Of a stretch of DNA of 64,000 nucleotides, positions 45,291-61,497 are shown one piece after another. Position 1 is the stretch's first letter, and each line of letters opens with the position of its first letter. A program made the translations under genes and the position numbers. Below the pieces are notes generated by a model. The model saw only the letters and a program-made list of their open reading frames with translations, made no database searches and was not told the origin of the DNA. This DNA is from a virus, in the IMG/VR virus record IMGVR_UViG_3300045988_181536, positions 110,314 to 174,313 of that record. One strand, written 5' to 3'.

Positions 45291-45848
45291 ATGAAAAAGT
45301 ATAACATTATTTACGCTGATCCTCCCTGGACATATCAAGATAAGAACTGTCAAGGTGCTTGTGCCCGGCATTATAAAACAATGACGGATTCCGAATTACA
45401 GTCACTTCCAATTAAAGATATAGCTGCGGATGACTGTATATTGTTTATGTGGGCTACGTATCCCAAACTAAAAGAAGCCCTAGATGTGATTGATGCTTGG
45501 GGATTTAAATATAAAACCATAGCTTTTCAGTGGATAAAACAGAATAAATCTGGAGACGGATTATTCTTTGGATTAGGAAGGTGGACCAGAGGCAACAGTG
45601 AACCTTGTTTATTAGCAATTAAGGGTAGACCTAAAAGAATCAGCCCAAAGGTATCACAGATTGTGTTTAGTCCATTACGCAATCATTCGCAAAAACCTGA
45701 TTGTGTAAGAGATAAAATTATAGAACTAGTAGGTGATTTGCCTAGAATAGAATTATTTGCTAGAAATAAAGCTGATGGTTGGGATAGTTGGGGAGACGAA
45801 ATAGATTCTGATATCAGCTTTGACTTAAACGATAACAATAAGGAGTAA
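45291..45848 (+). CDS. MT-A70 family DNA N6-adenine methyltransferase
   Basis: IIYADPPWTY (the DPPW catalytic motif) near the N-terminus; 185 aa. Confidence 0.7.
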   Translation: MKKYNIIYADPPWTYQDKNCQGACARHYKTMTDSELQSLPIKDIAADDCILFMWATYPKLKEALDVIDAWGFKYKTIAFQWIKQNKSGDGLFFGLGRWTRGNSEPCLLAIKGRPKRISPKVSQIVFSPLRNHSQKPDCVRDKIIELVGDLPRIELFARNKADGWDSWGDEIDSDISFDLNDNNKE

Positions 45849-47947: not shown

Positions 47948-49081
47948 ATGGAACAAAAATACTATAAAATTTTAACTTCAAAAAATACCTCGTTTGAAAG
48001 AGGGTTTGATTACACCCCCTATCTCCCAGAGAATGGAAAGCCAGGAAAGGAAACACCATTTATTATGAACCCGATTCCCTGTAGTAGAGGGTATCATGTT
48101 ACGCCTAATTGGTTAAAGTATTCAAGAGTACGAGATCTAGATAATATAAAAATATATGAGGTTGAGACTATCGGCGAGTCATTTGATTTGCCATTTAATT
48201 TTGGAAAAGAACCTGCTTTTATAATTTCATGTAGTTCAATTCGTTTTTTGAAAGATGTCACGTCTGAATGTAAAACCTTATTGAAACAATTCAAGGAAAA
48301 GAACCAAGGTTCATTTAACCTAGGCGAGAATAACACAGGAGACGCAAACGAAGGAGATTATAATACAGGATCCGCAAATACGGGTAACCATAACACTGGA
48401 AATTTTAACTCAGGTTCATACAATTCTGGGTGTCATAATACGGGAAATAATAATACGGGAACTGCAAATCTTGGGAATTACAATGCAGGCACTGGCAATA
48501 TAGGTGATAAAAATTGCGGAAGTTTTAATGTTGGTTCTTTTAATGTTGGGGACTTTAATATAGGAAATCGTCATGTTGGATATTTTAATATAGGTGTCTC
48601 TAATATTAAAATGTTTAATAAAGAAATAGATATTCTTCCAGAAGACATACAGTTTCCGCGTTGGATAACTGTAGATGATCCGTTTTCATTTATGTTTAGT
48701 AAGAGGGAATTAAGATCGCGATTTGAAAACGCAGATAGTGACGACATCTACCGTACAATTAATCTTCCTAACTTTAACTACGCTATCTTTGAGAAAATAA
48801 CTGGTATCTCAAAGGAAGATATTGATAAGAAATTAAGTTGGGTTACTCTTAAGGAAAGTGCATTAAGTGAACATAAAAAAATTAAGGTAAATCTTAATGA
48901 AGACTTTACAGAGCTAAAGCCTTGTCCATTTTGTGGTAGCAAGAATATAGAATTAAGTGCTGAAGAATATTATGATAAAGACGTATTTTACATTGTTTCT
49001 TGTAATAACTGTGGGGCTAAGATCGAAGGCTCCGGCAGAAATAAAGAAGCTGCAGAAGCTTGGAATACAAGGTGTGAATAA
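47948..49081 (+). CDS. protein with NTG pentapeptide-like repeats and a C-terminal Lar-like zinc ribbon
   Basis: About 20 tandem 5-residue repeats (NTGDA NEGDY NTGSA NTGNH NTGNF NSGSY ...). C-terminus LKPCPFCGS..VSCNNCGAKIEG..EAAEAWNTR resembles Lar restriction-alleviation proteins (CPFCG...C..C......AWN.R). Confidence 0.5.
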   Translation: MEQKYYKILTSKNTSFERGFDYTPYLPENGKPGKETPFIMNPIPCSRGYHVTPNWLKYSRVRDLDNIKIYEVETIGESFDLPFNFGKEPAFIISCSSIRFLKDVTSECKTLLKQFKEKNQGSFNLGENNTGDANEGDYNTGSANTGNHNTGNFNSGSYNSGCHNTGNNNTGTANLGNYNAGTGNIGDKNCGSFNVGSFNVGDFNIGNRHVGYFNIGVSNIKMFNKEIDILPEDIQFPRWITVDDPFSFMFSKRELRSRFENADSDDIYRTINLPNFNYAIFEKITGISKEDIDKKLSWVTLKESALSEHKKIKVNLNEDFTELKPCPFCGSKNIELSAEEYYDKDVFYIVSCNNCGAKIEGSGRNKEAAEAWNTRCE

Positions 49082-49367: not shown

Positions 49368-49851
49368 ACTAACTGAGGCCCAATTAAATAAAGTTAAGTG
49401 TATCGTTGAGTCAAAGGCATATCAAGGAAGTTTAAGTTTTACTAAAAAAGGGGTTACACCTAAGGATAAAAGATTTAATAGATATGCGAAACAATTGTTA
49501 AAACGAGGGTTTGACGATTCAGAAACTTGGGACTTGGGATCAGCTATGGCAAGATGGTTAATTCCAAGGCTAAAAAGGTTTAAGAAGTTAAATGTGGGAT
49601 ACCCTGGCATATTTGCTAAGTATAAAGACGGGTATGAGAAATGGAATAAAATTATAGACGAAATTCTTTGGATGTTAGAAGAAAAAGTGACTGAAAAAGA
49701 AGAAAACGATCTGTTTTATCAGTACAATAAACTTCCGCTTGCAGAGCGCCCAAGTTCTTTGGGTGAATGGGAAGAATGGAAGAAATATGAAAAACGTATG
49801 AATAAAGCTAAAAAATTATTTGGCGAATTTTGGCCACATTTTTGGTGGTAG
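49357..49851 (+). CDS. hypothetical protein
   Basis: 164-aa ORF with a Trp-rich C-terminus. Confidence 0.3.
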   Translation: MTNKLTEAQLNKVKCIVESKAYQGSLSFTKKGVTPKDKRFNRYAKQLLKRGFDDSETWDLGSAMARWLIPRLKRFKKLNVGYPGIFAKYKDGYEKWNKIIDEILWMLEEKVTEKEENDLFYQYNKLPLAERPSSLGEWEEWKKYEKRMNKAKKLFGEFWPHFWW

Positions 49852-49865
49852 TAGGGAAGCTTATT

Positions 49866-50831
49866 ATGAATAACAGAGCAAAATATAATGTTTGTGCGAT
49901 ATCAGACATACATTTTTTAGATTTATTTTGTGGTAAATTTTCTTCTTATGTAGACCCTAATATAGATCTTGTGCTTATTGCTGGGGACATAGCCGACAGT
50001 TATGTCCCCAGCAATGATAAAATTATTATAGATACGAAAATGTGCATGAATAAAGTATATCTTGACAGTTCATTATCTATAGATGAATGCATTATAAAAA
50101 TTGATCAACTGAAAAATAAATTTGACAAATATTGCTTAAAGCGTTCCGCGCATCATGTAGCTAACTTTCTTTATGATCAGGTATTTAAAATGTTCCCAAA
50201 TGCCCAGTTTGTATGTGCGATACGAGGCAATCATGACCGTTATTCTTGGAAAGATGTTAAGGCTCAAAGTAAAAATTATGCTAAAACCGCAGATAAGGTG
50301 AAATTGTTAGAAGGTACGGGTTTTATAACTTTACCTATGACAAAATTAAATAAAGGTGATAATCTTTCCATCTTTTATAGTGAAATTGTCAGCACCGATA
50401 AAACCTTTTTAAATGTGCAGCAAAATGAAAAAGTTAAAAATCGCATGACAACGGATGATAACTTTTTAAAGGCTTTGCAAAAAACTTGCCGTAAAAATAA
50501 AGATATAATGCCGGATATTGTTTTAACACATATGCCGCCGTATAATATCATTTCTTCTAAAGTTTACACGCCATTGGGTGATTTTAGTACTGATATTGGT
50601 TCAAAGGCATTAAGGTATGCAATAGATTTTGAATTTAATGAAACACCGGTTTTTGTTTTCGGGCATTGTCATAAAGGTTTTACTGATGATAGAACGTATG
50701 AAGAGAAAAATGCTAATTCCGGCATAATGCAGTCATTTTATAATGCGTCGATAGTTTCGGATGATATGGCTTTAACATTTAATCATCAAAAATTTGCAGA
50801 GTTTATAACATTTACCTTAGGCACTTACTGA
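49866..50831 (+). CDS. calcineurin-like metallophosphoesterase
   Basis: VCAISDIHF, LIAGDIADS and IRGNHDRY in canonical order. The ATG at 49866 is preferred over the listed TTG at 49830. Its stop overlaps the next start (tgATG). Confidence 0.55.
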   Translation: MNNRAKYNVCAISDIHFLDLFCGKFSSYVDPNIDLVLIAGDIADSYVPSNDKIIIDTKMCMNKVYLDSSLSIDECIIKIDQLKNKFDKYCLKRSAHHVANFLYDQVFKMFPNAQFVCAIRGNHDRYSWKDVKAQSKNYAKTADKVKLLEGTGFITLPMTKLNKGDNLSIFYSEIVSTDKTFLNVQQNEKVKNRMTTDDNFLKALQKTCRKNKDIMPDIVLTHMPPYNIISSKVYTPLGDFSTDIGSKALRYAIDFEFNETPVFVFGHCHKGFTDDRTYEEKNANSGIMQSFYNASIVSDDMALTFNHQKFAEFITFTLGTY

Positions 50832-51424
50832 TGCACTTAGACACTCAACCTGATTTTAAAAATACATTTAAGTATCAAACTATACAGTATTTATGGGAAT
50901 TAAATGCAGTTTATTCTACCGATCAACTGAATAGAGTGCAAATTGTTACTCCAAAATCTTTGAAATATTTAAGAAAAAGTTTGCGTCCCTGGTTTGGCTT
51001 CAGAAACTATTTTCCTCCTATATGGAAAGACGGTCATCCGGACCTAAAGTTTAATGGATCACGCATATATCCCGAAAGTAAGCATAAAGAATTGCAGAAG
51101 GAATTAGTTGGTTATGTTACTGACATATTTGCCGTAAATAATAAAATATTTGTTAAATGCGCTTATAATGATGCAGGTAAGAAATTGTTAAAACGATTTC
51201 CTTCGTTTGGATCTAAAGCATCTGCAAGACAAACTAAGCGGTTTTCGCCGTTATGGTTGATTCAGGTTACAAATAATCCTGTTGATCTTTTGGAAATTGC
51301 AATAAATTTACCGTATAGTTGTCCTATATCTGAAATAGCCTTACCTAGGCAGTTATTATCTTTAGCTATTAGCACAGTAGAAAAAGTACGATATAAAGAT
51401 AGCGGACAAATTGTTGTTAAATAA
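50831..51424 (+). CDS. hypothetical protein
   Basis: 197-aa ORF between two phosphoesterase paralogs and translationally coupled to the upstream one. Confidence 0.3.
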   Translation: MHLDTQPDFKNTFKYQTIQYLWELNAVYSTDQLNRVQIVTPKSLKYLRKSLRPWFGFRNYFPPIWKDGHPDLKFNGSRIYPESKHKELQKELVGYVTDIFAVNNKIFVKCAYNDAGKKLLKRFPSFGSKASARQTKRFSPLWLIQVTNNPVDLLEIAINLPYSCPISEIALPRQLLSLAISTVEKVRYKDSGQIVVK

Positions 51425-51437
51425 CAAATTAAAAATT

Positions 51438-52445
51438 ATGGAAATAATTTACCCATTTTCTATCCAATATGCATCAGATCTACATTTAGAATTTGATGAT
51501 AACAAAGATTATTTAAAACAAAATCCCTTAATACCCTCAGCTGATATTTTAATATTGGCGGGTGACATAAATTATCTGTCCAATTATACAAGTGAGTTTA
51601 TGCTGGATTGGTTTAAAGCCCTTTCCAAGCAATTTAAAGAAATTATTATAGTCCCCGGAAATCACGAGTATTATTTAAGTTATGAGGATGAAGAAGAGCT
51701 TACAATGAACCTGCTTCATCAGAAAGCCAAGTCAAGTTATCCAAGATTACGATTTTCCATGGTTGCGGATACATTGGGATGGGCAAATTCCTTGTCTGTT
51801 ACTGAGAGCATATTTGCTGCAAACGGCATTTATAACATTAGGTTTCTTAATAATACCGTCGCAGAATATACGAAAAAATCTTGCGAATTTTTTAATAAAA
51901 ATTCTTCTTTTAATAAAGTAAATATCATTTGCTCAACCCTTTGGTCAGACATTGATATTCCGACCATTGAAGCGTCGAAATATTATATGAATGATTGGGA
52001 GTGCAGATATGATGAGAATCTAAAATTAACGCCGAAAGTGATAAAGCCTATATTTTGGGTTAGTCAGTCATTTATATGTCATAAACTAATCCAGGAATCT
52101 TCTTGGGATGTAAATCTCGACTGCATTAACATTGTTGTAACGCATCATGCACCACTTTTAAAATGCGTTAAATTTAATAAAAATAAGAAAAGTGTTCTAA
52201 AGTCTTGTTACGCCAGTGCTTTAGATAGTTATGGATTTTTTAACAAAACCATTGATGGCAAACAAATAGCGCCGCAATTTTGGATTTATGGTCATAGTCA
52301 TTATGAGCCTGAGTATAAAGAACTTTATGATTTCACTGTAAAGAATAAACGTGGCAATGCTATTACCAGGATTGTAAAAAACCCCGTTGGTTATGTGCAT
52401 GCCAACCATCATATTCATTTTAATCCCTCAAAAATTTTATTTTAA
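51438..52445 (+). CDS. calcineurin-like metallophosphoesterase (paralog of 49866..50831)
   Basis: ASDLHLEFDD, ILAGDINYL and VPGNHEYY. The ATG at 51438 is preferred over the listed TTG at 51411. Confidence 0.55.
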   Translation: MEIIYPFSIQYASDLHLEFDDNKDYLKQNPLIPSADILILAGDINYLSNYTSEFMLDWFKALSKQFKEIIIVPGNHEYYLSYEDEEELTMNLLHQKAKSSYPRLRFSMVADTLGWANSLSVTESIFAANGIYNIRFLNNTVAEYTKKSCEFFNKNSSFNKVNIICSTLWSDIDIPTIEASKYYMNDWECRYDENLKLTPKVIKPIFWVSQSFICHKLIQESSWDVNLDCINIVVTHHAPLLKCVKFNKNKKSVLKSCYASALDSYGFFNKTIDGKQIAPQFWIYGHSHYEPEYKELYDFTVKNKRGNAITRIVKNPVGYVHANHHIHFNPSKILF

Positions 52446-52461
52446 CCCGGAAAGGAAACTT

Positions 52462-52791
52462 ATGGAAAATACCACTGAAAATACAAAATCAAATAATCTT
52501 ATGAACTTTGGTCAAGCGATTGAAGCTCTCAACAGGGGAGAAAAGGTGTCTCGCAAGGGATGGAACGGAAAGGGAATGTATCTCTGGAAGAAGCCGGCTT
52601 TTGAAATCACCCCCGAAATATGCTCCGACCCAAAGCTTAAACAGGCCGTTATCGACAACGGGGGAAAGCTTCTCGGGCTGCCGACAATCTGCATGTACAC
52701 GCATGATTCGACCGGACGCAAGGCGGTTTTGACCGGATGGCTGGCCAGCCAATCGGATATATTCGCCGAAGATTGGGAATTAGTTGATTAA
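52462..52791 (+). CDS. DUF2829-like (Tad2-like) small protein
   Basis: MNFGQAIEALNRGEKVSRKGWNGKGMYLW is characteristic of the DUF2829 family, to which the Thoeris anti-defence protein Tad2 belongs. The gene is conspicuously GC-rich against the AT-rich background. The real start is the ATG at 52462, after an aaggaaa RBS. Confidence 0.5.
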   Translation: MENTTENTKSNNLMNFGQAIEALNRGEKVSRKGWNGKGMYLWKKPAFEITPEICSDPKLKQAVIDNGGKLLGLPTICMYTHDSTGRKAVLTGWLASQSDIFAEDWELVD

Positions 52792-52990
52792 AGATCAAAT
52801 AATCCTTGACGATTTATTTTTCTTAGTGCAGTTTAAAAAGTGAAAAATATTTTATTTTTATACGAGATTTATAGGTTAATAAAATTTTAATATTTTAGTA
52901 TAACTTATTTATGACCGTATATTTATAAAATATTTTCACTTAAAATATTACATATAAGTAAATTAAGCATTAAAAAAACAGATTTTATAT

Positions 52991-53365
52991 ATGCCAAACG
53001 AAACATCAAATACACAAGATTCTGATATAAATGAAGTTACGGATTTTTCTCAAGAATTTTCCGAAGTTGAAGTCGTAAAAGATGATTCTAACGTTGAAGT
53101 AAGTGACAGTGAAATAAAAGAAATTAATGATGAGTTAAAAGAAGCGATTAGTGAAGATCAAGAAGTATTTGAAGAACTTGCTGATGAAGATAAAGAAGAG
53201 TTAAAAGACCCTGATGCTTCAGAGGAAGAATCATCTATTCCTGTAGAAAATAACAGTGATAGTGTAGTAATAAATAAACCTGTAAGTGCATATGATAACG
53301 AATCAAAGTTTCCTTATGCGATTCCTGATGCTACATTAAATACGTGTCCTGCCAAAGGTTATTAA
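52991..53365 (+). CDS. hyperacidic protein (about 40% D/E)
   Basis: 124 aa dominated by E/D/S (EVEVVKDDSNVEVSDSEIKEINDELKEAISEDQEVFEELADEDKEELKD). Preceded by a 190-bp AT-rich promoter-like region and followed by a strong terminator. Confidence 0.45.
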   Translation: MPNETSNTQDSDINEVTDFSQEFSEVEVVKDDSNVEVSDSEIKEINDELKEAISEDQEVFEELADEDKEELKDPDASEEESSIPVENNSDSVVINKPVSAYDNESKFPYAIPDATLNTCPAKGY

Positions 53366-53394
53366 ATAAAACTATATTTTTATATCTATATAAT

Positions 53395-53440
53395 AAACGC
53401 CCATTTAGGTTTATGCCTTTTTGGGCGTTTATTTATTTTA
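53395..53440 (+). terminator. rho-independent terminator
   Basis: Stem aaacgccca/tgggcgttt, loop tttaggtttatgccttt, then atttatttta. Confidence 0.6.
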
Positions 53441-53554
53441 TAAGCGAAAAAATAAACTAAATTGAGGTATATATTATTAAGAAAGAATATTTATCTACAG
53501 CTAGACATTTCGCATATTCTGTGCGAAATGGGAAATTTAGATGTAGATAAATAA

Positions 53555-54076
53555 ATGATTACTATGGAAAAAGTTGTATATGGAAATCCCACAATTGAAG
53601 GCAAAGTGATGGACAACGTAAGCGTCAACCACGACGCTTACGTTGGACCTAACGCAGTCGTCAAGGGAAATGCGTACGTGCGTGATGGTGCACGCATAGA
53701 GGGCAATGCCGTCGTGGATGGCAACGCCGAAATCCACGATGCCGCTACAATAAAGGGAAATGCCGTCGTTGATGGCAACGCCCGCGTGGGTGGGAATTTC
53801 ATCGTGGGCGGCCACGCCCACGTAGGAGGGGAAGCCTCTCTAAGTGGGGAAGGTTCCGTAGGCGGTTTCGCCGACATCAACTCTGACGACGACTACGTCG
53901 TTATACATGGGCTGACCCCCCACCCGTTGACGGTGTACAAATCCTCCGTGTGGGGGTTTGAGGTTTCCATCCAGGGGCAGTGGGAGACATCGATTGAGAA
54001 TTTCCTGGAACTCGAAAGATTTCCAGGAAATGTAAAGAAAATTATCGAGCTCATAGCTCAAAAATGGAAAAAATAA
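53555..54076 (+). CDS. repeat protein with GNAxVxDGxA-type deca/icosapeptide repeats (beta-helix-like), GC-rich gene
   Basis: VKGNAYVRDGARIEGNAVVDGNAEIHDAATIKGNAVVDGNARVGGNFIVGGHAHVGGEASLSGEGSVGG. Tandem repeats of about 30 nt are visible at the DNA level. GC content is far above the flanks. Confidence 0.45.
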   Translation: MITMEKVVYGNPTIEGKVMDNVSVNHDAYVGPNAVVKGNAYVRDGARIEGNAVVDGNAEIHDAATIKGNAVVDGNARVGGNFIVGGHAHVGGEASLSGEGSVGGFADINSDDDYVVIHGLTPHPLTVYKSSVWGFEVSIQGQWETSIENFLELERFPGNVKKIIELIAQKWKK

Positions 54077-54090
54077 AATAGCCCCACAAT

Positions 54091-54130
54091 ACACAACCGG
54101 TGGAAATCCACCGGTTGTGTATTTTTTTTT
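54091..54130 (+). terminator. rho-independent terminator
   Basis: Perfect 13-bp stem acacaaccggtgg/ccaccggttgtgt, loop aaat, then a run of 9 T. Confidence 0.7.
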
Positions 54131-54201
54131 AGCTATAACACCTTGCTCACCTAAAAAATAAATCCTTGAATTTAACTCTTAAATAAGCGAATATACAATA
54201 C

Positions 54202-57200
54202 ATGTCATCTTCGAATATAAACGACTTAAGCGCATCAAATAATCCTAAAGAAATTATGGCTAAAAAAAATAAGCTTATTCCGGTATTAAAACGCGGAGTA
54301 ATAACAGAAGAACCGGATGATATTGAAAAGGTTAGATATGAGTTCGTGTCTCCAAATCAATTCTTTGGCAATACATTAAATTTATTACCAATGCAAAATT
54401 CCGTTACTGCTGCAAGGGCGTTTTATGAGCATAAGTTTATTACTCAAGCCTTGCCTATTAAAGACGGCGAATCCCCTAATGTGCAATCTTTAAAAAATGC
54501 GGATAATAACGAGTCATATGAGGATTATTTAGGCAAAAAAACCGGTGTTATTTCATTGGATGACGACGATAATTCTGCTGATATTTTGGAAGTGACGCCG
54601 GATTATATTAAATATAAAAACGATAAAGGCGAAACTAAGACTAAGAATTTATATAACAATTTTGCCTTTAATCGTAAAACCATGCTTACTAATTATCCTT
54701 TGGTAAAAGCGGGTGACAAAATAAGCAGGGATAAATCCAAAAATCCGCCTATTTTGGCTAAAACCAACTTTACTGATAATAACGGCACTTTAAATATGGG
54801 CCTAAATGCCAGAGTGGGATTTGTGCCGTATAAGGGATGGTCCATGGATGATGCCGTGGTGATATCGGAAGATTTTGCTAAAAAGATGACTTCGCAACAT
54901 ATGTATCAATATAGCGAAGCTAATGACAGCAAGGATATAAAAACAGGCAAAGACCATTTTAAAGCTTTTTATCCGGATAAGTTTAACAAGGAACAGATGG
55001 ATAAAATAGACGATAATGGCGTTATTAAAGCAGGCACTGTGGTGAATCCCGGTGATCCATTAATCGTATCCACACGTTCCAGGGTTGTGTCCTCTAATGA
55101 TGCTAATTTAGGTAGATTATCCAAGTATTTAAAAACAACGCGATTGGACTCATCCCAAGTATGGGATCATAATACTCCGGGTGTCGTAACTGATGTTGTC
55201 AAAACAAATGACGGATATAAGGTTAACGTTGAGACTTTTGCGCCTATGCAAGAGGGGGATAAGATGTGCTATCACCCCGATACTGAAGTATTCACGGAAG
55301 ACGGATGGAAGAATATAACTGAGGTTAAATTGGGCGACAAAGTTGTTGCTTTAACCACAGATTTATCAGGAAAACCGAGCGGATATAAGCTTTCAGATGT
55401 AATAGAAATACATAAATATAAATTAAATAATGATACTTTATATGGTTATGAAGATGAGCATGTTGCTCAGTTAGTTACTGGAAATCATAATTGCGCTATT
55501 AATTGTTTAGACAAGTTGACCTATGAAACTGCAAATCTTTTATCTTATTCCTCAAAAGATGAACAGTTTATTTCTGTAAGTCCTGATTTTGATTTAAATA
55601 ATGGGAATGATTTAAAGTATACGTTTATAAATAAAAACAATGTATATAAAGCATATGATTATTCCGGAGAGGTAATAGGCATAGGAGTTAACGCTTTTTC
55701 GCATATTATTTTAACGAGATATCATAATAAACCTATATTCTCGGGCAACTCAAGTCGCTCCGGTAATAAGTTAACTGTATCCCATATTTTACCGCAAAAT
55801 GAAATGCCGAGAACAAAAGACGGCAAACCGTTAGATGTATTATTTAATCAGTTGGGTTTGGTGTCTCGAGTTAATGCCAATATGATGTATGAAGCTATGC
55901 TTGGGAAGGTTGCCGAGAAAACGGGTAAAAAATATAAATTGCCGACCTTTAATAAAAATAGCGAAAAATGGTATGATTTTGTCGAAAACGAATTAAAGAA
56001 AAATAACTTGTCTGATGTCGAACCCGTTTATGATCCAGTAATTGATAGAGACTTAGACCAACCTATTGCTGTAGGCAATGCTTATTTTCTTAAACTGCAT
56101 CATACGTCTGACTCCAAACTTTCCTCAAGGGGTCAGGGCATTTATGACCAAAATGAAATGCCTGTAAAGGGCGGGGAAGAAGGCATGAAAAGTAAAAGAC
56201 ACAGCAACTTGGAGAGTAATGCGATTTTATCTTCCGGTGCATATAACGTAATTAAAGACGCAATACATTTAAGGGGACAACGCAATGATGATTATTGGCG
56301 TAAGGTTCGTATGGGGCAGACGCCATCATTAGCCAAAAAATCGCCTTTTATCTGGGATAAGTATATTGCTTTAATGCAAGGCGCAGGAATAAATGCAAAA
56401 CGCGCTGATAATGGCGATTCGATTCAAGCCACACCTTTTACAGATAAGGACTTTGCATTATTTAACCCTGTTGAAATAAAAAATGACGGCATTATAGACT
56501 TTAAAAATATGAAACCTATTTCCGGCGGATTATTTGATCCTGCTTTAACTGTCGGCAACAGATGGGGAAAAATTACATTAGATAGGCCTTATCCTAATCC
56601 TGCATTTGAAGATACGATAATATCTTTATTAGGACTTAAAAGGTCTACGTTTAATGATATATTAGCCGGAAAAGAATCATTGCTTAAATACGGCACCGGA
56701 ACCAAGGCTATATATAATGCATTGTCGGATATAGACATAGACAAAGATTTAGAACAGGCAAAACAAGATTTTAAATATGGACCAAAATCTAAAAAGCAAC
56801 AGGCACTAAATCGTATAATGGCTTTAGACGGATTAAAAAATAACCGTATGAAGCCTGAAGAATTTATGATTACGAAGGTGCCTGTTATACCACCTAAATT
56901 CAGGCCTTATTCTGTTATGGGTAAAGATACTTTCTTGCCTGGGGATGCAAACGAGCTATATCAAGATGTAATTAACATGGCGCATACCCAGGGCGAGATA
57001 TTGCAAGAATTAGGCCCCGATGAAGCAGATAAAAATGTGCCTAATGTTTATAAATCTTTAAAAGCTTTGTATGGTTACGGAGAGCCTGCAAGTCGCAAAT
57101 TAAAGCAAAGAGGAGTATCAGGATTTTTACAAAAACTTATCGGGGGAACTTCTAAGTTTTCGCAATGGAATAGGAATATCATAAGCAAGCCCGTGGATTT

Positions 57201-57582
57201 TTCTGCGAGAGGCGTAATCGATGCAAATCCCGAGATTTCTATGGATGAGCTTGGTATTCCTTATGAAATGGGTTTTGAGATTTATTCGCCATATATTCAG
57301 CGAGAGCTTGTAAAAAGAGGCCTTTCACCAAAAGATGCGTTACAGAATATTAAAGACCAGACAAAAATGGCAAAAGATGCGTTGCAGACTGTGGTGGATG
57401 GAGGCAGATGGATTACTGCAAGTAGGGCACCGGCGTGGCATAAGTTCAATGTACTTGGCTTTAAACCTGTGTTTCATGAGGGCAAGAATATATTGCTTCC
57501 GCCTGTGGTGAGCTCTGGATTAGGGGCTGATTTTGACGGCGACTGCCAATGGGGGCACGTGTTCCTGTTAACTAAGTCTTGA
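54202..57582 (+). CDS. RNA polymerase beta C-terminal portion fused to beta' N-terminal portion (through the DFDGD active site), containing a mini-intein
   Basis: LNARVGFVPYKGWSMDDAVVISEDF aligns to beta [25 protein letters not shown]. GDKM | intein | SSRSGNKLTVSHILP..DVLFNQLGLVSR aligns to beta GDKMAGRHGNKGVISKINP..DIVLNPLGVPSR. Beta' motifs follow: PPKFRP, DFSARG, RAPAWHKF, and the catalytic GADFDGD 13 residues before the stop. Confidence 0.8.
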   Translation: MSSSNINDLSASNNPKEIMAKKNKLIPVLKRGVITEEPDDIEKVRYEFVSPNQFFGNTLNLLPMQNSVTAARAFYEHKFITQALPIKDGESPNVQSLKNADNNESYEDYLGKKTGVISLDDDDNSADILEVTPDYIKYKNDKGETKTKNLYNNFAFNRKTMLTNYPLVKAGDKISRDKSKNPPILAKTNFTDNNGTLNMGLNARVGFVPYKGWSMDDAVVISEDFAKKMTSQHMYQYSEANDSKDIKTGKDHFKAFYPDKFNKEQMDKIDDNGVIKAGTVVNPGDPLIVSTRSRVVSSNDANLGRLSKYLKTTRLDSSQVWDHNTPGVVTDVVKTNDGYKVNVETFAPMQEGDKMCYHPDTEVFTEDGWKNITEVKLGDKVVALTTDLSGKPSGYKLSDVIEIHKYKLNNDTLYGYEDEHVAQLVTGNHNCAINCLDKLTYETANLLSYSSKDEQFISVSPDFDLNNGNDLKYTFINKNNVYKAYDYSGEVIGIGVNAFSHIILTRYHNKPIFSGNSSRSGNKLTVSHILPQNEMPRTKDGKPLDVLFNQLGLVSRVNANMMYEAMLGKVAEKTGKKYKLPTFNKNSEKWYDFVENELKKNNLSDVEPVYDPVIDRDLDQPIAVGNAYFLKLHHTSDSKLSSRGQGIYDQNEMPVKGGEEGMKSKRHSNLESNAILSSGAYNVIKDAIHLRGQRNDDYWRKVRMGQTPSLAKKSPFIWDKYIALMQGAGINAKRADNGDSIQATPFTDKDFALFNPVEIKNDGIIDFKNMKPISGGLFDPALTVGNRWGKITLDRPYPNPAFEDTIISLLGLKRSTFNDILAGKESLLKYGTGTKAIYNALSDIDIDKDLEQAKQDFKYGPKSKKQQALNRIMALDGLKNNRMKPEEFMITKVPVIPPKFRPYSVMGKDTFLPGDANELYQDVINMAHTQGEILQELGPDEADKNVPNVYKSLKALYGYGEPASRKLKQRGVSGFLQKLIGGTSKFSQWNRNIISKPVDFSARGVIDANPEISMDELGIPYEMGFEIYSPYIQRELVKRGLSPKDALQNIKDQTKMAKDALQTVVDGGRWITASRAPAWHKFNVLGFKPVFHEGKNILLPPVVSSGLGADFDGDCQWGHVFLLTKS
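55267..55749 (+). other. mini-intein (161 aa) in the conserved beta GDKxxxRHGNKG motif
   Basis: Starts CYHPDTEV after GDKM. Block B is LVTGNHNCAI. Ends ..KPIFSGN followed by SSRSGNK. The terminal pair is Gly-Asn. Confidence 0.6.
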
Positions 57583-57613
57583 CAAAGTTTTCCATATTCT
57601 AATGATGTAGGGT

Positions 57614-59050
57614 ATGGAAAATAAATTATCAGACTTAATTTCTTTAAAACACAGCAAAGAATTTAATAACAAGAAACAAAAGTTTATAGATTTCTTAAAT
57701 ACCAATCTGGAAGTTCTACAGTTAAGAGAAAAATATAACTTAACTGTAGAAGATTTAAATTGGCATCTTACGAGAAAATTAGATTTCTATAAACACGAGT
57801 GTCCTGTATGTGGAAAACCTGTGCATGCTAACAAATGGGGTTGTTGGGATTTTCCCACCTATTGCTCAGTTAAGTGTAGAATGTCTGATCCGAAATATTG
57901 GGATAAAATTAAAGAAAGTAACGTAAAAAAATATGGTACGCCTTATTCGTTTCAGTCTGAAATAATTAAGTCGAAAATTAAACAGACGAATCTTCAACGT
58001 TATGGCGTAGAAAATCCAGCTATACTTGATTCTATTAAAGAAAAAGCTAAGGCTACTTGTCTGGATAAGTACGGAGTAGTTTCTACAGCGTTAGTGCCTG
58101 AAATTAGAGAGCTACAGAAAAAATCCCTAATACAGAATTATGTTTTAAATTGTAATATAACTAATGATGTTTTAAATTTAAAAAAAGAAATCTTAAGTTT
58201 TGTTAAAACAATATATTCTGGAGAAATATGTTTTGAAGATAAATCTATTGTTATAGATTCTTTGAATAAAAGAAAAAATCTTGAATTAGACATTTATTTG
58301 CCAGAAAGAAAACTGGCTTTTGAAATTAATGGTTCTTATCAATGTAGTTTGATGGATAAAAAACCAAGTTATAATACATATAAAACTAAGTTGTGTGAGG
58401 AAAAGGGTATACATTTAGTGCATATTATGGAATATACATGGGTTAATAATCCTGAAGGAGTGAAATCCAGAATTAAAGACTTATTGGGTATTTATGATCA
58501 AACAATATACGCCAGAAAATGTGAGGTTAGAAAAATAGAGTATAACAAAGCAAAAGAATTTTTAATTATGAATCATTTGCAAGGAGAAGTAGTTTCTTCG
58601 CGTAACTATGGTCTATTTTATAATGATGACATTGTAGGTGTAATGACTTTTGGTTCTCCAAGGTTTAATAAGAAATATTCTTGGGAATTACTAAGATTTT
58701 GTGTTAAACAAGGTCTGCATATTCCTGGAGCAGCATCAAAATTATTGTCATTTTTTGTAAAAGAAGTTAAACCTGATAACTTAATAAGTTATGCAGATAG
58801 GACTTGGAGTAATGGTAAGCTATATAGAGCATTAGGATTTAAATTAGAAGGTGAAACTAAACCAGGATATGTTTATGTAAAAAATAACAATCAAGAAGTT
58901 TTATGTTGGTATAAAAGTCAAAAACACAATCTAAAGAATTTATTGGGAGACCAATTTGATTCAACATTATCTGCATCAAAAAATATGATTAAGGCACACT
59001 ATTGGAAAGTTTATGACTGCGGAAATTTAATTTTTTCTAAAACATTTTAA
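57614..59050 (+). CDS. Zn-finger / KYG-repeat protein with a C-terminal GNAT-like domain (possible homing-endonuclease-associated protein)
   Basis: N-terminal CPVCGKPVH..CSVKCR. Three tandem repeats of about 35 aa (KKYGTPYSFQSEIIKSKIKQT / QRYGVENPAILDSIKEKAKAT / DKYGVVSTALVPEIRELQKKS). The C-terminal Q-G-x-x-x-G-A-A segment resembles GNAT motif A. It sits exactly where the beta' gene is interrupted. Confidence 0.3.
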   Translation: MENKLSDLISLKHSKEFNNKKQKFIDFLNTNLEVLQLREKYNLTVEDLNWHLTRKLDFYKHECPVCGKPVHANKWGCWDFPTYCSVKCRMSDPKYWDKIKESNVKKYGTPYSFQSEIIKSKIKQTNLQRYGVENPAILDSIKEKAKATCLDKYGVVSTALVPEIRELQKKSLIQNYVLNCNITNDVLNLKKEILSFVKTIYSGEICFEDKSIVIDSLNKRKNLELDIYLPERKLAFEINGSYQCSLMDKKPSYNTYKTKLCEEKGIHLVHIMEYTWVNNPEGVKSRIKDLLGIYDQTIYARKCEVRKIEYNKAKEFLIMNHLQGEVVSSRNYGLFYNDDIVGVMTFGSPRFNKKYSWELLRFCVKQGLHIPGAASKLLSFFVKEVKPDNLISYADRTWSNGKLYRALGFKLEGETKPGYVYVKNNNQEVLCWYKSQKHNLKNLLGDQFDSTLSASKNMIKAHYWKVYDCGNLIFSKTF

Positions 59051-59694: not shown

Positions 59695-60306
59695 ATGGAA
59701 ACTCTAACCAAACAAAACATGACAATAAAAGAAAAACTGGATTTATTAATCAAAGCCAACACAGCCTATAGAATAGGCAATCCTATTATCACAGACCAAG
59801 AATATGATTTAATCATCAGCGAAATAAAAGATACAAAAGAGTATAATGAAATAAAGTACTTCCTCAATGAAGGCGCAGACGGATCGGATTTTAAACATTC
59901 CTACGTGATAGGATCATTGGAAAAGCTTAAAAATGGTGAAGATGATACAATAAAGTCTTTTGATAAAAATAACTTAACAAAAAATTGGATAATTACACCC
60001 AAACTTGATGGGGCATCTTTGACGTTGTATTACATAAACGGTCAGTTGGCAGATATTGCTACGCGAGGGGATGGTTATAAGGGTAAATCGCAATTTAAAC
60101 GCTTGTTTGATTTAAATATTCCCAAGACTTTAAAATTTGCAAAAGGTACAGTTGTTATAAGAGGAGAAATACTTTTAACTCATCAGGCATTTGATAGACT
60201 TAATGCCGATACTAATGGCAAATATAAAAAGCATCCGAGAAATGCTGTCGTAGGACTTTTGGGAGATAAAAATGACACTTCTGACATTCTCCAAGCACTA
60301 AAGTAG
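59695..60306 (+). pseudogene. truncated NAD-dependent DNA ligase (LigA) fragment; first about 200 aa of the adenylation domain only
   Basis: TPKLDGASLTLYYINGQLADIATRGDGYKGK carries the LigA KxDG adenylation lysine and the TRGDG motif. HPRNAVVGLLGDKND aligns to LigA NPRNAAAGSLRQLDP. The ORF then stops 9 nt inside the convergent tnpB. No continuation is found within the window. Confidence 0.6.
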
Positions 60307-60341
60307 TTGGGTTCTCCTAACCTCGCGGTTTAGGTTTTCTG
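60281..60341. repeat. left arm of a perfect 61-bp inverted repeat
   Basis: ctgacattctccaagcactaaagtagttgggttctcctaacctcgcggtttaggttttctg. Its exact reverse complement occurs at 63940-64000. It spans the ligA stop and the last 14 codons of tnpB. Confidence 0.95.
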
Positions 60342-61497
60342 TTTCATCGGCGACTGCATTGGATGCTTCTGCATCTTTTAGTCTTACACCGCCTCCGCAG
60401 ACAAACACGACTTGCCCAGCCGCTAAAATATTTTTAGCTGCGTTTATATCTCTATCTAATACACTTCCACAGACTTGACATGTCCAAGACCTTTCGGAAA
60501 GCTTTAAGTCTTGTTTGATATAACCGCAGTGATTACAAGTTTTAGAGGAAGGAAAAAATCGATCAATGATTTTTAGATCTCTTCCATACCACTTGCATTT
60601 GTATTCCAACATATTGCGCAGCATACTCCAAGAAGAATTGGAGATAGCGTGTGCTAAATTATGATTTTTAAGCATATTTTTTACTGCAAGATCTTCCATA
60701 ACTATCGTTTGGTTTTCACGAATTAGTTTGGTTGTAATCTTATGCAAGGTATCTATACGCTTATTCGAAATTGTTTGATAGCATTTGGCCACCTTGACGT
60801 TTGCTTTGGTCCTATTCTTAGAACCTAACTTTTTGCAAGAAGCCTTACGTTGCAATCTTCGTAATTTATTAAAATCTTTTTTAGTATCCGGATTTTTGAA
60901 TACTTCCGCATTTGAAGTTGTTATTAAATTGTGCAACCCCAAATCCAGACCTACGGATTTATTTGAAACGGGAAGTTTGCAATCTTCATTACTATCTACA
61001 GTAATTGAAAAATACCATTCTTGAGAAGGGGTTAATCTAATCGTTAAGGATATTAATTTATCTGTAGACTTAATCCTCCAATTATCCTTAGATAATTTTA
61101 AAGGTTGCTTGGATTTAGCAATATAAACTTGGTTATTTTTGATTCTAAATCCTGAAGTAGTAAATCTTGCTGAACTTCCTGAAGATTTCTTTTTAAACTT
61201 AGGGTATTTGGCACGTTTGGCAAAAAAGTTATCAAACGCTGCGCCTAAATTTTTTATAGATTGTTGTAAACAAACATTAGATACTTCATTTAACCATGAG
61301 TATTCAGGCTGACGTTTCCATTTTGTCAGCTCTTTCATTAAATCAAAAGAGCTTAATGATTTGCCTGTTTGCGTAAATGTCGAAGACTTAAGATCAAGAC
61401 TTTTATTATAGATAAACCTAACGCATCCCAAGGTTCTACGTAGAAGAATCTCTTGGTCTTTCGTAGGATAAAATCTATGCTTTATAGTCTTTATCAT
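60298..61497 (-). CDS. tnpB: TnpB (RuvC-like RNA-guided nuclease)
   Basis: 399 aa. C-terminal CNHCGYIKQDLKLSERSWTCQVCGSVLDRDINAAKNILAAG zinc finger. Its sequence differs from the 42843..43958 TnpB. Confidence 0.8.
   Translation of the reverse strand: MIKTIKHRFYPTKDQEILLRRTLGCVRFIYNKSLDLKSSTFTQTGKSLSSFDLMKELTKWKRQPEYSWLNEVSNVCLQQSIKNLGAAFDNFFAKRAKYPKFKKKSSGSSARFTTSGFRIKNNQVYIAKSKQPLKLSKDNWRIKSTDKLISLTIRLTPSQEWYFSITVDSNEDCKLPVSNKSVGLDLGLHNLITTSNAEVFKNPDTKKDFNKLRRLQRKASCKKLGSKNRTKANVKVAKCYQTISNKRIDTLHKITTKLIRENQTIVMEDLAVKNMLKNHNLAHAISNSSWSMLRNMLEYKCKWYGRDLKIIDRFFPSSKTCNHCGYIKQDLKLSERSWTCQVCGSVLDRDINAAKNILAAGQVVFVCGGGVRLKDAEASNAVADETENLNREVRRTQLL

Follow-up and report, generated by a model that had tools for sequence, protein, structure and literature searches.

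Layout of the locus and its variation among relatives

We analysed 64,000 nucleotides of viral DNA (IMG/VR record IMGVR_UViG_3300045988_181536, positions 110,314 to 174,313; the whole stretch is called the window here, and its own numbering is used), concentrating on the segment between a calcineurin-like metallophosphoesterase gene and an RNA polymerase gene. Three open reading frames (ORFs) lie in this segment, all on the plus strand and at the positions assigned to them by an earlier reading of the letters alone, henceforth the sequence-only reading: ORF1 encodes a Tad2-like protein, ORF2 an acidic protein and ORF3 a predicted beta-helix protein. The sequence-only reading regarded the three as a single GC-rich mini-island, recently acquired and likely to serve anti-defence. 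A survey of related phages suggests that the segment is an accessory-gene hotspot in which several slots vary independently, one of them (slot B) holding exchangeable single-gene cassettes with a common leader hairpin. The features that carry the argument are the following (nt, nucleotides; aa, amino acids; GC3, GC content at third codon positions).

51411..52445, plus strand: MPE2, a calcineurin-like metallophosphoesterase gene (PF00149); conserved left anchor of the hotspot, by synteny
52449..52458, plus strand: Shine-Dalgarno-like GGAAAGGAAA, read from the sequence, 3 nt ahead of the ORF1 start
52462..52791, plus strand: ORF1, Tad2-like (DUF2829) gene, 109 aa; PF11195, with solved Tad2 relatives; GC3 0.54
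52792..52990, plus strand: AT-rich intergenic region with several AT-rich inverted repeats, 16.6% GC, upstream of the acidic gene
52991..53365, plus strand: ORF2, clade-specific acidic protein, 124 aa; net charge -29; predicted helix at residues 39-70
about 53392..53445, plus strand: intrinsic terminator of the acidic gene, fold z -5.5; its T-run marks where the cassette slot is joined on the left; conserved in all relatives
53440..54130, plus strand: whole slot-B cassette of about 691 nt (leader, hairpin, ORF3, terminator), delimited by BLAST, junctions and identity profile
53461..53487, plus strand: promoter-like leader box TTGAGGTATATATTATTAAGAAAG, present once per cassette in relatives and once in the window
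53488..53553, plus strand: nested 5'-leader hairpin with a GGGAAAT internal loop, from folding and covariation; ends 1-10 nt before the ORF3 start codon
53555..54076, plus strand: ORF3, predicted left-handed beta-helix (hexapeptide-repeat) protein with an orphan C-terminal alpha/beta domain; 173 aa, or 170 aa from 53564
54088..54131, plus strand: intrinsic terminator of the cassette, a 16-bp stem (54088-54123) and T-run, fold z -8.3; right junction
54202..57582, plus strand: RNA polymerase beta/beta' fusion gene of the phage multisubunit type, 1126 aa with beta and beta' domains (PF00562, PF00623, PF04997); right anchor, by synteny in all relatives

The window has a mean GC content of 35% and carries nearly all of its genes on the plus strand. 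Against this background ORF1 and ORF3 (GC 0.47 and 0.51) are the only strong outliers: their GC3 values of 0.54 (z 6.5) and 0.57 (z 7.1) compare with 0.27 +/- 0.04 for the 55 other ORFs, and no further 400-nt bin anywhere in the window rises above 0.44 GC. The GC-rich parts are internal to the reading frames. In ORF1 a 13-codon N-terminal extension (52462-52500) has 23% GC and the DUF2829 core (52501-52791) 50.5%, while ORF3 reaches 57% over 53601-54000 between ends of 30-32%. The same two genes have an equally high GC3 in all relatives. Hence the codon usage of both is foreign, and the compositional anomaly described by the sequence-only reading is real, rightly located and far beyond chance.

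To place the segment in context we collected about 20 related loci (numbered with the prefix L below), drawn from contigs of 165-177 kb of uncultured phages and from fragments; several contigs of this clade are labelled human gut metagenome. The gene order in the relatives is MPE, p197, MPE2, (Tad2), (slot A), acidic gene, (slot B), RNA polymerase, where brackets mark three slots that vary independently of one another across the loci. Slot A, between Tad2 and the AT-rich region at 52792-52990, holds p258/p265 and p93 in most relatives and is empty in the window. Since the three genes of the window vary independently among relatives, they do not constitute one island. A megablast search with positions 50000-58000 against 50,697 phage records gave no match, and among cultured viruses those closest are phages of Vibrio and Salmonella, at an RNA polymerase identity of about 30%.

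Slot B is a probable site of cassette exchange

The cassette that carries ORF3 ends in its own terminator, which is followed by AGCTATAACACC upstream of the RNA polymerase gene. In several close relatives (L001, L010, L012, L013, L135, L136 and L141) slot B is empty, with AGCTATAACACC following immediately on the acidic gene's terminator; the ORF3 block is thus missing from phages whose flanking DNA is 93-95% identical. The empty, filled and alternative states of the slot share identical junctions. Where the slot is filled it contains ORF3 alleles (L006, L007, L064, L151), a GNAT acetyltransferase (L009) or a protein of 123-124 aa, p123 (L011, L146-148). The more distant L008, L014 and L149 have arrays of 3-6 cassettes, such that the overall range is 0-6, with one in the window. 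The cargo of these arrays comprises GNAT, two left-handed beta-helix paralogs, p120, p123 and a short pentapeptide-repeat protein, and most array cassettes are GC-rich (GC3 0.48-0.66). Every cassette has the same architecture, namely a leader box of the form TTGwGGTATATAT..TTAGAAAGGA, the nested hairpin, an ORF, and a terminator with its T-run followed by AGCTATAACA.

A comparison of the window with L151 revealed a mosaic: leader and hairpin are 92-98% identical and the ORF only 46-74%, with identity returning to at least 90% from the terminator on. Likewise, relative to the distant L008, the hairpin is 98% identical, the terminator 94% and the ORF about 70%. Between the window and L151 the synonymous divergence (dS) of ORF3 is 1.8 and its nonsynonymous divergence (dN) 0.28, as against 0.31 and 0.012 for the adjacent RNA polymerase gene. 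As the dS of ORF3 far exceeds that of its neighbour, its alleles are likely to be old lineages swapped by recombination rather than products of fast local evolution. On the strength of these junctions and identity profiles, ORF3 is the cargo of a separately swappable cassette, which removes it from the mini-island of the sequence-only reading.

That reading had also noticed a nested hairpin ahead of ORF3. The hairpin is indeed exceptional in its stability (z -9.3; none of 200 shuffled sequences folds as well), and beyond this it belongs to a conserved, covarying leader present in every cassette. In an alignment of its copies (A4), 25 pairs are 94% paired and 11 of the 25 show double compensatory changes, a result matched by none of 500 shuffles, and slid controls drop to 34-53% paired. 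Three sequence types thereby adopt one structure, in which the GGGAAAT loop is invariant. The minimum free energy is -28.4 kcal/mol on the plus strand and -22.5 on the minus strand, and the stem contains many G-U pairs, some invariant (e.g. columns 56-62), which are mismatches on the opposite strand. The G-U pairs together with the stronger plus-strand fold suggest that the hairpin acts as a sense-strand RNA. A covariance model of leader and hairpin, built from ten copies, detected one copy per cassette at 76-120 bits in at least 10 loci and a single copy in the 64 kb window. Rfam has no family for the hairpin or the leader, and neither the leader box nor ATAAGCGAA and TTTTTAGCTATAACA are repeated elsewhere in the window beyond chance. 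A degenerate leader pattern run against metagenome contigs returned mostly chance matches; among the loci so retrieved the covariance model confirmed only L064 and L065.

The p120 cassettes (L008 3884-4413; L149 4128-4763; L014 about 1960-2490) have in addition a GC-rich, hairpin-rich leader of 450-600 nt between the promoter-like box and the usual hairpin. This long leader has no family in Rfam either; it may be a structured RNA not described so far, or else a mobile element.

ORF3 is a predicted beta-solenoid with an orphan domain

The start of ORF3 is more likely the ATG at 53564, the equivalent of which is the apparent start in the relatives. The GNAxVxDG-type repeats reported for it by the sequence-only reading resolve into 16 consecutive hexapeptide units of the GNAxVx type, and the protein scores above threshold against Pfam Hexapep (PF00132; 29.9 bits, threshold 27) and just below it against bactofilin (PF04519; 26.7 bits, cut-off 27.9). 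It also matches phrog_7964 and phrog_5070, two phage families of unknown function. The hexapeptide units are not mirrored in the DNA, where a tandem-repeat search detected no repeat. In the AlphaFold model the beta-helix has a per-residue confidence (pLDDT) above 90 (91-94 for residues 11-60) and is followed by a C-terminal domain of four strands and two helices at a pLDDT of about 70. When this domain was compared by phmmer with 1.84 billion representatives, only one relative had an E-value below 1e-5.

In having 16 units and a confidently predicted left-handed beta-helix ORF3 resembles the hexapeptide-repeat proteins, including LpxA/PglD, the gamma-carbonic anhydrases (which are also of similar size), YdcK and the two PHROG families. 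Foldseek searches of the model against PDB and BFVD, and sequence searches of PDB, recovered gamma-carbonic anhydrases, PglD, LpxA and YdcK at the level of the scaffold only; the PDB fold matches to gamma-carbonic anhydrases and PglD have a probability of 0.99-1.0, yet their E-values are no better than 7e-3 (E >=7e-3). ORF3 appears to differ from these proteins in several respects: 1) conserved catalytic or metal-binding residues are not evident, as a family alignment of 20 sequences shows no invariant catalytic residue and no histidine column that is invariant or conserved at 90% or more, H89 being common and replaced by Arg or Val in some members; 2) its orphan C-terminal domain occurs in this phage clade only; 3) its alleles are extremely divergent among otherwise near-identical phages. 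The dN/dS of 0.15-0.3 argues for a functional protein. With low confidence, we favour a non-enzymatic binding or decoy role, the most likely partner being a host or defence component. A literature search found no hexapeptide or beta-helix anti-defence protein.

ORF1 is a Tad2-family protein of foreign but old origin

The assignment of ORF1 to DUF2829 by the sequence-only reading holds: a profile search places residues 14-108 inside PF11195 (Tad2-like) over the full profile (1-73/73), at 81 bits against a cut-off of 25 (E 9e-23). Sequence searches of PDB retrieved SptTad2 (8wjd, E 2.8e-20), HgmTad2 (an AcrIIA7 homolog; 8kbi, E 1.4e-15), AcrIIA7 (9kzr, E 1.1e-14), ModTad2 (9eib, E 3.7e-12) and the SPO1 Tad2, Gp34.65 (8sme, E 1.3e-10). 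Solved Tad2 proteins can be aligned with about 95 of its 109 residues; both elements that hold gcADPR, the GWNGKG loop and the GWLASQ(S/T)D motif, are kept, and between beta2 and beta5 it has an insertion as in HgmTad2 and SptTad2, which are Bacteroidota-associated, and not the short form of SPO1. Like other members, it is a single small gene within a phage accessory region. By these matches ORF1 is a clear member of the Tad2/DUF2829 family, distinguished from the solved HgmTad2, SptTad2 and SPO1 proteins by its AT-rich N-terminal extension of 13 residues. PADLOC and NCBIfam returned nothing specific for ORF1, ORF2 or ORF3.

In HgmTad2 the substitutions W21A/N22A and S90A/T92A/D93A markedly lowered gcADPR binding, and S47A, F70A and R31A/N85A abolished binding of cGG in a second pocket (PMC10680739). 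The first set aligns to W34/N35 and S96/S98/D99 of ORF1, four of the residues being identical and T92 becoming Ser, which is the subfamily consensus; these contact residues are near-invariant in the 120 closest homologs. G23, W87 and L88 of HgmTad2 are likewise retained, as G36, W93 and L94. The set of residues associated with the cyclic-dinucleotide pocket (R31, S47, F70, N85), a sub-type rather than a family-defining trait, is not reproduced: R31 and N85, two of the four cGG residues, correspond to Lys44 (120 of 120 homologs) and Thr91 (112 of 120), and the counterparts of F70 and S47 fall in the insertion, a stretch that HMMER and MAFFT align differently. The retention of Lys44/Thr91 across homologs suggests a conserved sub-type with a second pocket unlike the one that binds cGG, and this pocket, if used, probably takes another ligand.

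Several observations bear on the history of the gene. An intact copy occupies the same position in L007, L009, L010, L011, L135-137 and L147. The copy of L001 is frameshifted at the C-terminus, with loss of the WLASQSD motif; those of L012 and L013 are cut by a TnpB/OrfB_IS605-type insertion (L013 2865-3671, minus strand) that leaves the C-terminal 64 codons; and in L141, L142 and L146 the gene is absent, and nothing separates the MPE2 stop from the ribosome-binding site that serves the next gene. Near-identical AAAGGAAAAT ribosome-binding sequences bracket the insert, and a comparison of junctions between Tad2-present and Tad2-absent relatives places a near copy of GGAAAGGAAA on its far side. 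Among intact alleles of the clade the Tad2 core has a dN of 0.009-0.018 and a dS of 0.12-0.32, giving a dN/dS of about 0.05-0.1, while the frameshifted L001 copy has diverged to a dN of 0.081 and a dS of 0.43. These values point to purifying selection, and the gene has been lost several times. Backbone dS is 0.11-0.41 for MPE2 and 0.22-0.33 for the RNA polymerase gene, and the GC3 of Tad2 is 0.53-0.59 throughout the clade. As its dS equals that of the backbone and it stands at the same place in most relatives, Tad2 is a foreign yet old acquisition that predates the divergence of these phages, and the recent acquisition assumed by the sequence-only reading is not supported. Retention combined with repeated loss is what one would expect of a counter-defence gene that is useful under some conditions only.

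The closest homologs outside the clade are about 65-84% identical, one bearing the title 'MAG: DUF2829 domain-containing protein [Bacteroidales bacterium]', and the 84% homolog lies, in the contexts examined, on phage-like contigs of 39-47% GC with SU10-type capsid genes. None of them could be identified as the donor, since the closest genes outside the clade reach 84% at the protein level and only 73% at the DNA level, with dS saturated.

The acidic protein is a resident of the clade

The acidic gene has the lowest GC3 of the window (0.15) and hence native codon usage. All 98 detected homologs of its product are 58-100% identical, and the long contigs that encode them all belong to this clade of 165-179 kb; at the same position L008 has a counterpart of 34% identity. 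By codon usage and distribution, the gene is a fixed resident of the clade and not part of an imported island.

With 37 Asp/Glu among 124 residues (29.8%), 8 Lys/Arg, a net charge of -29 and a pI of 4.05, its product is the most acidic encoded in the window; the 40% Asp/Glu of the sequence-only reading is attained solely across residues 12-91. The protein consists of a conserved N-terminal part, an amphipathic acidic helix, a variable acidic linker and a conserved, Cys-containing tail of 40 aa. The central linker is replaced wholesale between alleles, and dN/dS between close relatives is 0.4-1.2, a fast evolution that is unusual for a clade-fixed gene. AlphaFold2 with 21 homologs gave a mean pLDDT of 60 and a predicted template-modelling score (pTM) of 0.26; only the helix at residues 39-70 is confident, and residues 1-9, 72-96 and 98-104 fall below a pLDDT of 50. 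The acidic protein is thus predicted to have one helix in a largely disordered chain.

The sequence-only reading likened this protein to DNA mimics such as Ocr and ArdA, and it does share with Ocr, ArdA and Arn a small size, a strong negative charge, a place in an accessory region, an AT-rich upstream region and a terminator after the gene. Nonetheless, it differs from them in that: 1) it has no family match, searches having found no PHROG, NCBIfam or meaningful PADLOC match, none to Ocr (PF08684) or ArdA (PF07275), and no Pfam match at E up to 0.1 save a sub-threshold Cadherin_5; 2) one helix plus disorder is predicted in place of a compact fold displaying carboxylates, at least for the monomer that was modelled, as folding on oligomerisation or binding is possible; 3) its linker is swapped between alleles and it evolves quickly. 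DNA mimicry by the acidic protein is therefore unsupported, charge being the sole feature that fits. The gene's own AT-rich upstream region and its terminator, both noted by the sequence-only reading, are present as described, and the promoter that the former was supposed to contain was not recovered, a promoter scan having called no sigma-70-type site for the gene.

Genomic neighbourhood

Genes of the defence-evasion type occur near the hotspot, namely an MT-A70 methyltransferase (45291-45848), a 377-aa Pentapeptide_2-Lar restriction-alleviation fusion (47948-49081), and a DUF7487 and Mom-family protein (57614-59050). These neighbours make the anti-defence theme plausible, and homology supports it for Tad2 only. 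The sequence-only reading, which named the locus as anti-defence, is supported in part, by the Tad2 homology and by this neighbourhood; an anti-defence role of ORF3 is not supported, its neighbours and its variability being all that suggests one.

The genes directly upstream of Tad2 (49830-52445) encode a conserved protein of 197 aa between two calcineurin-like metallophosphoesterases that are paralogs of each other. That the pair might be cyclic-nucleotide phosphodiesterases is no more than an idea, PDB sequence searches with both enzymes having found no solved relative. The RNA polymerase ORF joins the C-terminal part of beta to the N-terminal part of beta' and stops 12 codons past DFDGD-C. 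After GDKM, about 160 residues starting CYHPDTEV break into its Rpb2_6 domain and have the look of a mini-intein placed in the GDKM..GNK motif; relatives have versions of 1343-1344 aa with a LAGLIDADG domain, or a separate downstream ORF of 518 aa resembling homing endonucleases. Farther downstream, a TnpB-like gene on the minus strand (60298-61497; HTH_OrfB_IS605, OrfB_IS605 and a Cas12f1-like TNB domain) is abutted by a 203-aa N-terminal fragment of an NAD-dependent DNA ligase (59695-60306). The ligase of L006 is uninterrupted (>628 aa, after a polymerase gene), and that of the window accordingly looks split by insertion. Just past the 5' end of the TnpB-like gene, an intergenic match to the Rfam abiF RNA motif (RF03085; 61612-61649, plus strand) scores 46.1 bits against a gathering threshold of 37, and the motif likewise occurs in the distant relative L008 (10407-10444).

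Interpretation

We propose, with a probability of about 0.6, that the segment between the metallophosphoesterase and RNA polymerase genes is a hyperplastic accessory-gene hotspot of an uncultured phage clade (about 165-177 kb, 35% GC) with three independent slots, namely an old Tad2 sponge gene, the p258/p93 slot and a cassette array to which ORF3 belongs, the acidic gene being a resident. Tad2 would have been acquired once, before the relatives diverged, and then kept by strong purifying selection with repeated loss. As a homotetramer, it would most likely soak up gcADPR-type, TIR-derived ADP-ribose signals and so blunt Thoeris-type immunity. Slot B would hold zero to six self-contained expression cassettes, each made up of a promoter-like leader, a sense-strand hairpin, one ORF and an intrinsic terminator, which would be gained, lost and replaced through homologous recombination between the conserved leader/hairpin and terminator/junction sequences. 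ORF3, probably a non-enzymatic beta-solenoid with an orphan C-terminal domain, would be one such load, and between the slots the acidic protein would persist as a fast-evolving, largely disordered resident. The sequences themselves establish the family memberships, the composition, the polymorphism, the mosaic boundaries and the covariation of the hairpin; the binding of a ligand by Tad2, promoter activity in the leader, a role of the hairpin at the RNA level and any anti-defence role of ORF3 or the acidic protein are inferred.

The closest known parallel is the promoter-early stem-loop (PeSL) of T4, in which terminator, promoter and stem-loop motifs bound exchangeable ORFs whose function is unknown (Arbiol et al. 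2010, PMC2839356; Comeau et al. 2014, PMC4122927). In both systems small composite motifs (terminator, promoter-like box, stem-loop, start codon) bracket non-essential ORFs in a hyperplastic region, and motif-bounded indels and replacements distinguish close relatives. In contrast to the T4 elements, the cassettes described here belong to an unrelated phage lineage, show no evident sigma-70 consensus and have their terminator as a separate hairpin; their nested leader hairpin of about 25 bp lacks a T-run, stands next to the start codon and changes with the gene.

Several points weigh against this interpretation. It is drawn from about 20 loci, several of them out of the same studies, and in the window and its relatives the PeSL-like motif is confined to one slot, the site of the tandem array, unlike the T4 motifs scattered across the genome. 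The covariation of the hairpin derives from three sequence types, and hence from few independent events. A sigma-70 scan found no site at 53461-53487; by eye the leader (TTGAGG-18-AATATT) agrees with 8 of the 12 consensus positions, and the promoter type of the host may differ. Given this weak likeness and its occurrence nowhere else in the window, a promoter function of the leader is a guess. As for Tad2, T92 is Ser in ORF1 and the hydrophobic adenine contacts align poorly. Moreover, Tad2 homologs bind 3'cADPR, His-ADPR, N7-cADPR, cyclic dinucleotides and cUMP/cCMP (PMC12393519), or in one case tracrRNA (PMC13133391), a range so wide that the exact ligand of ORF1 can only be conjectured. Finally, the GNAT acetyltransferase found as an alternative cassette keeps an enzymatic role open for ORF3.

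The view that ORF3 is an enzyme, either a trimeric hexapeptide-repeat acyl- or acetyltransferase or a gamma-carbonic-anhydrase-like protein that modifies a host or phage molecule, is in our judgement unlikely. It draws on the Hexapep match, on the source annotation of P0125 as 'carbonic anhydrase/acetyltransferase-like (isoleucine patch)', on the PDB entries that match best in fold and sequence (gamma-carbonic anhydrases, PglD and LpxA), and on a functional parallel in the GNAT cassette in the same slot of L009, L008 and L014; acetyltransferases can act as anti-defence proteins, AcrVA5 being an example. All these matches, however, reach only the repeat scaffold, those in NCBIfam falling far under the cut-offs in addition to the poor Foldseek E-values; the family shows neither an invariant His triad nor a catalytic His, and the orphan C-terminal domain is unlike the acyl-CoA-binding tails of known transferases. 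We regard as improbable that the three genes form one recently imported anti-defence island, in which a Tad2 sponge, an Ocr/ArdA-like mimic and a beta-helix protein act together. The family of ORF1, the charge of ORF2 with its own upstream region and terminator, the Lar, MT-A70 and Mom-like genes nearby and the high variability of the locus would all suit such an island. Yet the genes vary independently among relatives, ORF2 is native in codon usage, fixed in the clade and mostly disordered in prediction with no match to Ocr or ArdA, and Tad2 is as diverged at synonymous sites as the backbone, hence not recent.

Much less probable still is the idea that the hairpins are DNA-level recombination sites for a site-specific recombinase, comparable to integron attC sites, rather than RNA leaders. 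An ordered array of single-gene cassettes, with hairpins that keep their structure while the stem sequence varies, could be read in this manner. In integrons, however, attC hairpins lie at the 3' ends of the cassettes, whereas the present hairpin lies 5' of the ORF and its type changes together with the downstream gene, which places it inside the exchanged unit and not at its boundary. The mosaic boundaries themselves fall in the flanking conserved leader and terminator, the neighbours tested include no integrase or recombinase gene, and the invariant G-U pairs mismatch, and the fold weakens, on the other strand. An integron-like mechanism was accordingly rejected, given the lack of an integrase among the flanking genes tested and the position of the hairpin within the unit. 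The chance that the GC-rich patches are assembly chimeras or artefacts is practically nil. Abrupt shifts of composition over about 300-400 nt in AT-rich metagenomic sequence might suggest as much, but the same genes recur with the same positions and composition in more than 10 independent assemblies (ENA, JGI/IMG-VR, Logan), and their reading frames stay intact across the composition boundaries and are under purifying selection. As independent assemblies from different samples agree, this explanation was rejected.

A bolder version of the hotspot proposal, which we consider doubtful, would make slot B a dedicated counter-defence exchange platform of a widespread gut phage clade. In this version the hairpin would be a new regulatory RNA, for example a processing or translational-control site for a phage or host factor, the GC-rich beta-solenoid cargo (beta-helix proteins with the orphan C-terminal domain, and short pentapeptide-repeat proteins) would supply new decoys or mimics that inhibit host immunity, and the acidic protein would be a disordered nucleic-acid mimic.

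Significance

The Tad2 gene itself is ordinary, being one more member of a family with thousands of known homologs. Its sub-type is common in Bacteroidales-associated sequences, and its Lys/Thr pocket offers a concrete target for work on ligand specificity. Its history also carries a general caution: because atypical GC content can last long after acquisition, 'GC-rich' should not be read as 'recent'. What is new is the cassette architecture with its covarying leader hairpin, and the main value of the locus is architectural, in that a plug-and-play array of cassettes with cargo of foreign composition occupies one fixed site, and phages with a backbone identity of 95-99% exchange alleles there. 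Modular shuffling of the PeSL-like kind is thereby extended beyond the T4-like phages, and the leader and hairpin model provides a simple sequence handle for harvesting candidate host-interaction and counter-defence genes from metagenomes.

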